DNA of 64,000 nt, taken from assembly GCA_964016885.1 (NCBI GenBank), contig OZ024752.1, positions 30,566,001-30,630,000 of the forward strand, written 5' to 3'. The stretch's first letter is position 1; the number at the start of each line of letters is the position of its first letter. The notes under the pieces are model-generated. The model did not search any database. It saw nothing but the letters and a program-made list of their open reading frames with translations, and was not told where the DNA came from. Shown here one piece after another: positions 51,398-53,227 of the stretch. The position numbers and the translations under genes were made by a program. The DNA is from Eledone cirrhosa (lineage: Eukaryota).

Positions 51398-51458
51398 TAT
51401 TTTATCTGATGATAGCGTACCAAAATTTTGGTACTCTTGAAATATATATAATAGAATA
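51398..51458 (+). ncRNA. Type I hammerhead ribozyme (family B; element ~51310-51600)
   Basis: tattttat-CTGATGA-tagcgtaccaa/ttggtactctt-GAAA-tatata-TA-atagaata. Confidence 0.8.
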
Positions 51459-51621
51459 AATATGGTTTTATAAATATAGTTTCCATTTATTTAATATCCT
51501 TGAATATTATACTCCAGAACACCTGTCGAGTGCTCTGAATCAGTTATAAACATTTATATTTGTTGAATTACCAACAAATTGAATATCCCATCTGCTTAAA
51601 CATATATATATATATATATAT

Positions 51622-51880
51622 ATCATCATCATCATTTTACGTCCACTCTTCCCTGCTTGCAAGGGTAGGACGGGTCTTATTCAGCACAGCATCTCTCCAC
51701 TTGTCACGGTCCTTTGTCATCTTCACCGTGAGCTTCAGCGATCTGAGGTCTGTTCTCACCACCCCCGCCCATGTTTTTCGTGGTCTACCTCTCCCACGTA
51801 TTCTTTCAACTTGCATTTCCTGGCACTTCTTCACCCATCGGTCATCCTCCATGCACATCACATGTCCATACCACCTCAGT
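51622..51880 (-). mobile_element. RTE LINE 3' end (same family as 8263-9207)
   Basis: LRWYGHVMCMEDDRWVKKC...RGRGRPRKTW...DRDKWR plus (GAT)n tail. Confidence 0.85.
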
Positions 51881-51934
51881 GGCATGGACATGTGATATAT
51901 ATATATAAGCTGAAGCATATAGACAATATGCCCA

Positions 51935-52378
51935 CATCCACTCCCACTGCAAAGTGGTCGTGGAGGTGTCATGACAAAAAAGCACCCTGCCCACACTGTA
52001 AAGTGATCGTGTAGGCGCCACGGTAAAAAAGTATCCAGTACTCACTGTAAATGAGGTTGGTGTTAGGAAGGGCATCCAGCTGTAGAAATCAAGTCAAAAT
52101 CATTTCCCGTATGAGCAAGACAAAGTCACCCGACCTGGCACTGCCCACAACAGGACAACCCGTCTAACCCATGCTAGCGTTGAAAAATGGACGTAAAACG
52201 GTGATCATGATACACACACATCATCATCATCATCACCGTTTTACGTCCGTTCTTCCACGCTAGCATGGGTTAGACGGGTTGTCCTGTTGTGGGCAGTGTC
52301 TGGTCGGCTGACCATGCCTTGCTCATACAGGAACTGATCTGGCTTGATTTCTACAGCTGGATGCCCTTCCTAACACCT
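51935..52378. mobile_element. Two SINE 3' parts arranged tail-to-tail
   Basis: ~52055-52203 and ~52233-52378 are imperfect inverse copies meeting at (CAT)n. Confidence 0.7.
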
Positions 52379-52758
52379 ATAATTGTTTTTATATATGTAA
52401 TATATGTAATATATGTATATATATATATATATATATATATATATATATATATACACATATATATATATATACATATATATATATATATATATATATATAT
52501 ATATATATATACATATATATATATATATATACATATATATATATATGTATATATATACATATATATATATATATATATAATTAAAAGTTTAACAAGGTTC
52601 AATGAATTCATCAATGAATAAAGTTTCACAATAGATTAGAAGCACTCTACAGTAGGTTTACTGGAGTTATTAATGTTACTTCAAAATATTAATTTAGTCA
52701 TGGCAGTCATGACTAAATTATAACCATCAACATAGTCAAGGTATGTCAGGCATCAACT

Positions 52759-52824
52759 TATTTTATCTGATGAGGACGTACTGTTGAAATAGCTCAGTAC
52801 CTCTGAAATATGTATAATAAAATA
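52759..52824 (+). ncRNA. Type I hammerhead ribozyme (family C)
   Basis: tattttat-CTGATGA-ggacgtactg/cagtacctct-GAAA-tatgta-TA-ataaaata. Confidence 0.8.
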
Positions 52825-52944
52825 TATTTGATCACATGAATGTCTATATTAATATTTTGAAGTAATATATATATATATATATATATATATATATATATAT
52901 ATACGATATTAAACAAATGGAAACTATATTTATAAAACCATATT

Positions 52945-53010
52945 TATTTCATTATACATATTTCAGGGATACCATATTAAAAATATGGCATGCCTTCTTC
53001 AGATAAAATA
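52945..53010 (-). ncRNA. Type I hammerhead ribozyme (family B, inverted arm)
   Basis: tattttat-CTGAAGA-aggcatgccatatt/aatatggtatccct-GAAA-tatgta-TA-atgaaata. Confidence 0.8.
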
Positions 53011-53161
53011 CAATATATAAGCAGTTTTATAAATAAATTTGACGTACCATAAATATTGATCAACTTCCATTTAAAAAGTTGGTTTGGTAGTTGGTTTTTA
53101 AATGGAAGTTGATCAATATTTATGGTACGTCAAATTTATTTATAAAACTGCTTATATATTG

Positions 53162-53227
53162 TATTTTATCTGAAGAAGGTATGCCATATTTTTAATATGG
53201 TATCCCTGAAATATGTATAATGAAATA
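53162..53227 (+). ncRNA. Type I hammerhead ribozyme (family B)
   Basis: tattttat-CTGAAGA-aggtatgccatatt/aatatggtatccct-GAAA-tatgta-TA-atgaaata. Confidence 0.8.

Follow-up and report, generated by a model that had tools for sequence, protein, structure and literature searches.

Long-stem hammerhead motifs and a candidate tail hairpin in the 3' ends of probable Penelope-like elements of Eledone cirrhosa

Introduction

Hammerhead-like motifs recur along a 64,000-nucleotide stretch of the Eledone cirrhosa assembly GCA_964016885.1 (contig OZ024752.1, positions 30,566,001 to 30,630,000, referred to here as the window), and their second stems differ in sequence while still pairing. The question raised by this locus is whether the motifs were shaped by selection on an RNA structure and, if so, in what kind of element that selection acted. 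The role of hammerheads in Penelope-like elements (PLEs) is still an open question in Craig et al. 2021 (PMC8557442) and Frangieh et al. 2024 (PMC11167929).

PLE hammerheads, the dimer model and the covariation argument applied below are already in print (Cervera and De la Pena 2014, PMC4209133). The present observation is real and largely known, and what is new is a long-stem structural variant of the motif together with a candidate tail hairpin, termed HP2. The literature retrieved on hammerheads with octopus and on PLE tail hairpins holds no account of either; Repbase, Dfam, Lunse et al. 2017 and the supplement of PMC11167929 lie outside that scope and may bear on both. The word 'hairpin' is absent from the accessible sections of PMC8557442.

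Results

Eight type I hammerhead copies in three families

The window contains eight copies of a type I hammerhead, six of which are independent and fall into three families: A (306, 51398 and 53162), B (25972 and 31674) and C (52759). The other two are inverted duplicates of their neighbours, with 172/174 and 101/104 identical positions. The copies are as follows.

51398–51458, + strand: hammerhead, family A; stem I 51398–51405/51451–51458, core 51406–51412, stem II 51413–51438, GAAA 51439–51442, palindromic hexamer 51443–51448, predicted cut after A51450
52759–52824, + strand: hammerhead, family C; core 52767–52773, GAAA 52805–52808, predicted cut after A52816
53162–53227, + strand: hammerhead, family A; core 53170–53176, GAAA 53208–53211, predicted cut after A53219
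52945–53010, − strand: hammerhead, family A, in the short inverted arm 52904–53077
306–370, − strand: hammerhead, family A; short-type end, then another repeat
25843–25913 (−) and 25972–26042 (+): hammerheads, family B
31674–31744, − strand: hammerhead, family B

An earlier reading made from the sequence only had quoted stem II of four copies, and these were found where it had placed them, at 306–370 (−), 51398–51458 (+), 52759–52824 (+) and 53162–53227 (+). All four are real, and its count has to be raised to eight by the copies at 25843–25913 (−), 25972–26042 (+), 31674–31744 (−) and 52945–53010 (−). That CUGANGA, GAAA, UA and a common 8-bp stem I are kept, with G-U changes allowed, is so in all four, and two copies carry a U-G pair in stem I. 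The order stem I, CUGANGA, stem II, GAAA, hexamer, UA, stem I is found in 8/8 copies.

In the window, a pattern restricted to the core matched 15 times, over 10 distinct core positions; shuffled sequence gave a mean of 1.42, and 0/100 shuffles reached the count, which bears out the earlier claim that the motifs are not chance matches. The same stem I is common to 8 of these 10 core positions. In an unfiltered search of the window with a covariance model of the eight copies, the copies themselves scored 73–85 bits and the next match, a truncated piece, scored 27 bits. A ninth full-length copy did not come up in the window, nor did one whose core had decayed, and core-based searching alone therefore does not account for the intact cores. 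Beyond the eight copies, nhmmer returned only truncated pieces from the window, and the Rfam hammerhead models matched nothing there at the gathering score or up to an E value of 10. A pattern scan of metagenomes gave two matches, both by chance and inside a glutamine synthetase-like ORF, and a scan of viral contigs gave none.

Architecture of the stems

Stem II has the same build in 8/8 copies: three base pairs, a pyrimidine-pyrimidine (Y.Y) mismatch at position 4 and then a helix, 10–16 positions altogether. The sequence-only reading had described the arms simply as paired, and paired they are apart from this mismatch (8/8), a U.U first pair at 51398 and a bulged base in 306; it overlooked the mismatch as well as a stem III that is palindromic and too short in the monomer. 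The first pair of stem II is A-U in five copies, G-U in two and U.U in one, and is never G-C, so that the canonical G10.1-C11.1 is present in 0/8 copies. A U10.1-U11.1 combination is a natural variant on record (PMC3088659), and Hydra PLE hammerheads show similar first pairs of stem II (PMC8557442).

Stem I is 100% paired and six of its eight pairs are invariant; it is for this reason uninformative on pairing and indicates a constraint on sequence. A stem I longer than 8 bp beat shuffles in 1/7 copies (13/500, the others 31–213/500) and is unsupported across families.

Stem III of the monomer consists of 2 bp and costs 2.0–3.5 kcal/mol in 6/6 copies. The 8-nt sequence made of the hexamer with its flanking A and U is self-complementary (G-U allowed) in 7/8 copies and includes one two-sided change, and the duplex of two such palindromes has a calculated energy of −2.2 to −3.7 kcal/mol in 5/6 copies and +0.6 in one. 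A stem III with the A15.1-U16.1 pair is found in the dimer form only, and the hammerhead fold is the minimum-energy fold in no single copy. Dimer-type hammerheads are known from metazoan repeats (PMC4209133; PMC3088659). The stretch 51398–53227 (1.8 kb) holds three + strand hammerheads whose palindromes are compatible, and in a read-through RNA 51398 and 52759 could in principle pair as a mixed dimer.

Stem II diverges while its pairing is retained

Between families (11 copy pairs), the 12 core positions are 100% identical and stem I is 97% identical, whereas the flanks of 30–35 nt on each side are 49–50% identical. The stem II arms are 17–50% identical between families and retain their pairing. 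Of the 184 cells in the eight copies, 96.7% are paired and 32 show change on both sides, each result with 0/500 shuffles, and controls in which the pairing was slid gave 33.5–60.2% paired. This confirms that stem II diverges while the pairing and the core stay, as had been claimed from the sequence. Two-sided change in stem II is present in 9/11 pairs. Two of five measures, both counts resistant to relatedness, were not significant (two-sided-change pairs 10, 70/500 shuffles; further pair types 22, 283/500), as expected for so few sequences. In simulations of neutral change over a paired stem, the retained pairing of stem II had P values of 0.0005–0.004 in 5/7 comparisons; the two comparisons between the closest copies gave 0.05 and 0.29.

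Across the six independent copies, stems I and II contain nine G-U pairs and no A-C pair (P 0.002). This asymmetry points to selection on the RNA strand, since a DNA process neutral to strand would not yield it. It also bears on the idea that stem II pairing was kept by correction of DNA palindromes, through template switching or gene conversion, a process for which this region, rich in DNA palindromes and fold-backs, might seem a likely setting. Such correction would treat the two strands equally and would remove mismatches, whereas the position-4 mismatch is kept in 8/8 copies and the wobbles are one-sided; moreover the core does not vary, although it is no palindrome and its flanks are only about 50% identical. 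We regard palindrome correction as scarcely credible, and return to selection on RNA structure.

The inverted arms differ at 2/174 and 3/104 bases (1–3%). The copies are accordingly young and their divergence arose in the source elements; decay after insertion cannot explain the differences in stem II. Selection on RNA structure, as the sequence-only reading had it, thus stands for the source elements on the retained pairing and the excess of G-U pairs; that 'functional' would mean self-cleavage, or that the genomic copies, truncated ends lacking an ORF, are active, does not follow from it. Public reads contain frequent changes at 53200 (G>A, 58% of depth in one set) and at 53184 (C>A) that break a stem II pair, with no change at the partner among the 40 of 69 variants listed, the reads giving no linkage. 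Among the same 40 of 69, 0/15 variant places in the hammerhead fall on the 12 core positions (P 0.03, a weak result).

Fold-back insertions with two 3' termini

The DNA surrounding the copies is AT-rich and dense in repeats. Seven of the eight hammerhead copies sit at (TA)n in 5'-truncated ends, and six belong to fold-back pairs of which one arm carries a tail. Five fold-back insertions of families A–C were recognised at (TA)n (52904–53357, 26236–26450, 25798–26170, 31546–32150 and 52581–52864). The elements and arms are listed here.

52581–52720, − strand: long (tail-bearing) inverted arm, family C; 5' truncation downstream of the hammerhead; HP2 52667–52644
52759–52824, + strand, hammerhead carried by the short arm of family C, which ends near 52864 at (TA)n
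52904–53077, − strand: short inverted arm, family A, 172/174 identical to the long arm
53095–53357, + strand: long arm, family A; hammerhead 53162–53227 and an 85-nt tail ending at (TA)n
Element with copy 51398, + strand: family A, ending near 51597 at (TA)n
25798–26170: family B fold-back insertion; two hammerheads; HP2 with one mismatch at 26087
26236–26450: fold-back insertion of family A, the truncation falling within the hammerhead; HP2 26318 (−)
31546–32150: family B insertion; hammerhead 31674–31744 (−), HP2 31631 (−), short inverted arm 32103 (+)

There are two 3' termini about 85 nt apart, the long arm running ~85 nt beyond the short arm, so that the predicted cut site is ~50–55 nt from the end of the short arm and ~135–145 nt from the end of the long arm. 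In public data, 4453 contigs from one run and 35025 reads from another map to 53096–53357 (262 bases). At 53273, 6417/35025 reads depart from the element into (AT)n, many places show joints to the opposite strand, and read depth climbs steeply towards the 3' end of the element. The 5' ends vary between copies, two of them lying inside or beyond the hammerhead. Other repeats of the window, at 52099–52338, 194–253 and 31328–31458, are likewise in fold-back pairs.

A candidate hairpin at the start of the tail

The tail opens with HP2, in which a 4-bp ACUC/GAGU stem leads, past a 2-nt bulge on its 3' side, into an inner stem that differs in its pairs from family to family. A second, distal hairpin (HP3) has stems in families A and B only, with weak energies.

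51511–51531, + strand: HP2; 4-bp outer stem, 2-nt 3' bulge, inner stem
53276–53294, + strand: HP2, just past the common short-copy end at ~53273
51559–51578, + strand: HP3, distal tail hairpin, with weaker support than HP2

The strict HP2 pattern has five matches in the window against 0.2 in block shuffles, and two more differ at one position; all seven sit in the tails of such insertions. In 7/7 comparisons the short arm diverges from the long arm 2–10 nt before HP2. Both read variants within HP2 at 53276, among the 40 of 69 listed, fall in the loop or the bulge. Whole tail segments mostly fold no better than shuffles (z +0.04 to −2.24), and HP2 therefore rests on conservation and position, not on energy.

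One of the seven belongs to a fourth fold-back family, at 60062–60250, which also lies at (TA)n, is GC-richer and has arms identical at 47/47 positions, with HP2 at 60131 (−). This family may start inside a hammerhead with its 5' half cut off.

By eye, the same build with GCUC/GAGC is present ~40–50 nt after the hammerhead in the consensuses Hydra-2_Amil and Hydra-2_Ajap, and with one mismatch in Hydra-1_Crog (PMC8557442 File S7, in the part accessible to us). In the other three of the six Hydra-clade consensuses in that part it was not seen by eye: Hydra-1_Amil has no clear match, and two end ~30–50 nt after the hammerhead, before a tail.

Probable assignment to Penelope-like elements

We consider it probable, at about 0.85, that the copies are hammerhead-bearing 3' ends (pLTR and optional tail) of related families of endonuclease-positive PLEs, most likely of the Hydra clade, which were 5'-truncated and in part inverted on insertion into (TA)n. 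Membership in the PLEs rests on the architecture: the hammerhead lies near the 3' end within the pLTR, as it does in endonuclease-positive PLEs, which are described as 5'-truncated, with an inverted copy alongside and a tail on one of the ends (PMC8557442). The Hydra clade is suggested by HP2, through its likeness to parts of the Hydra-clade consensuses, and by the style of the hammerhead. Insertion into (TA)n is a mark of the Hydra clade that is found here as well, and being common to Naiads and other clades it is not diagnostic alone.

No ORF could be linked to the sequence upstream of these short copies, where an endonuclease-positive PLE has one with a telomerase-like RT and GIY-YIG; the longest upstream stretches (~125 and ~350 nt) carry no PLE protein signal, and a motif scan of the window for the marks of a Hydra-clade ORF (RWK and DKT motifs, a CxCX5C linker, no CCHH) found none. 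A set of 45 codons upstream of copy 306 had been considered as the C-terminus of a GIY-YIG domain; it matched nothing in a profile of 59 PLE proteins, and only two unrelated repeat proteins matched among 1.84 billion. The idea was dropped, and with it that of a stop codon in the core.

The window does contain a remnant of a PLE ORF, at 27823–29016 (+), comprising the end of the reverse transcriptase (RT), thumb, cysteine linker and GIY-YIG and 57% identical to its best relative. It has a fold-back and tail of its own, with an inverted arm at ~27250–27820 and a 3' end at ~31180. As a source of the copies it was rejected, having no hammerhead in 27200–31200 and no HP2 near, and it belongs to another family. 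Relatives of this ORF lie at 18 loci. At 11 of them a hammerhead-like motif lies next to the ORF in the same orientation, in no case of the kind of families A–C, and the hammerhead family described here was found at 0/16 PLE-bearing loci. PLE retroelements with hammerheads also occur in contigs filed as bacterial MAGs (L003–L019), which are probably animal host DNA.

The lack of an upstream ORF at every copy, with ~350 nt of non-coding sequence upstream of the hammerhead in the family B insertion 31546–32150 (before 31744), would also suit a non-autonomous retrozyme- or SINE-like element of ~250–600 nt that bears hammerhead and tail, borrows a PLE protein and whose families have no full-length version, and so would the very high abundance. 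Such an element is nevertheless unlikely, as the 5' ends vary and depth climbs to the 3' end in the way that random 5' truncation predicts, and the head-to-tail repeats of 150–300 nt that define metazoan retrozymes (PMC7761336) are missing; no tandem array of such repeats bounded by hammerheads was found in the window. Although the copies share with metazoan non-LTR retrozymes a type I hammerhead within a non-coding repeat, theirs form tandem repeats of 150–300 nt with canonical tertiary loops, and those described here are dispersed, truncated and inverted (PMC7761336).

Comparison with published PLE hammerheads

The copies resemble Hydra-clade hammerheads (PMC8557442), with which they share the (TA)n target, a type I hammerhead 100–200 nt from the 3' end, frequent U before GAA, A at the cut site, an AU-rich stem I and a self-complementary stem III. 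They differ from them in stem II, which is listed there with 3–7 bp and no internal mismatch and has 10–16 positions with a fixed Y.Y at position 4 here, and in stem III, which has 3–4 monomer pairs there and an 8-nt palindrome giving only two here. One Hydra-clade hammerhead family is listed from Octopus bimaculoides (PMC8557442 File S2); the copies, which lack an ORF, have no sequence match by eye to the accessible part of Hydra-1_Obim.

Like the min-HHR of metazoan PLEs (PMC4209133), the motifs are of type I with an enlarged helix II and a palindromic remnant of helix III, fit a dimer model, and resemble its thousands of dispersed single motifs, opposite-strand pairs 100–700 bp apart and covariation-rich families. 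Unlike the min-HHR consensus, they have neither an extra nucleotide after A9 nor G10.1-C11.1; Marsupenaeus and Saccoglossus 2 are exceptions in that paper, being without the extra nucleotide and cut after A. The published min-HHR descriptor (stem II of 3–7 bp, GAAANNUH) fits 0/6 independent copies, which have 26–36 nt between the cores and a GAAA-UH gap of 6 nt.

This last result could be turned in favour of a source among the Naiads, a PLE clade said to lack canonical hammerheads, in which long-stem variants would have been missed by the published descriptors. Naiads, too, target (TA)n, and the mark HHR_half_core is given to two from cephalopods. Against this, 0/5 published cephalopod Naiad consensus 3' ends show this hammerhead or HP2 by eye, a text search of the Naiad supplement for the stem I-core motif gave 0 matches (line breaks may conceal some), and HP2 indicates Hydra. 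A Naiad source is accordingly very improbable, and a Hydra-clade PLE remains the preferred reading.

The Poseidon element of Anolis carolinensis (PMC11167929) likewise inserts into AT-rich targets and has a tail bounded by two 3' termini; a stem-loop lies in its RT start region, with a hammerhead upstream of the stem-loop. Unlike the tail described here, which is ~85 nt long and begins with a bulged hairpin, that of Poseidon is 30–40 nt long and inside the start of the ORF, and its stem-loop is described as AC-rich. In vitro, reverse transcription of Poseidon began at two internal sites bounding the tail; its hammerhead, which insertion did not require, cut only with protein, and none of the RNA reads had an end at the cut site.

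Discussion

A scheme consistent with these results would start from a tandem PLE source, the transcript of which would carry two hammerheads. Their 8-nt palindromes (A-URYRYA-U) would pair with each other, each hammerhead supplying the stem III of the other, and because stem III would come from the partner, cutting after UA would need a dimer or the element's own protein. In replicating master copies, selection would have preserved the core, stem I and the overall form of stem II, with its 3 bp, Y.Y and long helix, as the letters of stem II turned over by transitions via G-U. By analogy with Poseidon, reverse transcription may start at either of two internal sites, just 5' of HP2 or at the end of the tail, which would yield the short arm and the long arm. 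The genomic copies seen here are most likely inert by-products, and in the fold-back pairs a read-through transcript would hide the ribozyme within a long duplex.

We propose more tentatively, and with less than even confidence, that the 3' module of the Hydra clade is a two-part RNA signal conserved in a cnidarian, an echinoderm, a crustacean and the present host. It would comprise a hammerhead of undescribed form, with 3 bp, a fixed Y.Y and a long helix in stem II and an invariant sequence in stem I, which escapes Rfam and the standard descriptors, and a hairpin of the build RCUC, inner stem, 2-nt bulge and GAGY. The element's protein would bind this bulged hairpin and set the first RT start 2–10 nt upstream of it. 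If true, such a signal would account for the PLE tail and for the short-arm/long-arm insertions in the Hydra clade. HP2 is a specific and testable candidate signal for internal RT initiation, which has so far been demonstrated in one element only. With the flanks at background identity and yet the core, an exact stem I and one internal mismatch held, the copies form a set of natural mutants, on which three roles for the motif could be set against each other: dimeric ribozyme, protein-assisted ribozyme and protein-binding scaffold.

Other features of the window

Two further hammerhead-like motifs were noted on the − strand. The one at 50100–50155 resembles the listed Hydra hammerheads in style, its stem II being long and its stem III of 3 bp being capped by a 3-nt loop, and its sequence is unrelated to families A–C; the one at 48920–48964 is weak and possibly degenerate. 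Of the remaining features, 49920–49977 and 50504–50567 (−) are tRNA-like heads of a SINE family with more copies near 27000 and 34200. ORF fragments lie at 8255–8931, 15609–15941 and 51640–52041, one with a PHD-finger match, and we take all three to look like RTE-type LINE ORFs. An exon-like ORF at 2563–2976 (+), with furin-type cysteine repeats and a hydrophobic segment, resembles the C-terminus of a proprotein convertase at weak scores, and at 38046–44596 a 15-nt unit is repeated in tandem over 6.5 kb, with a strong skew between the strands.
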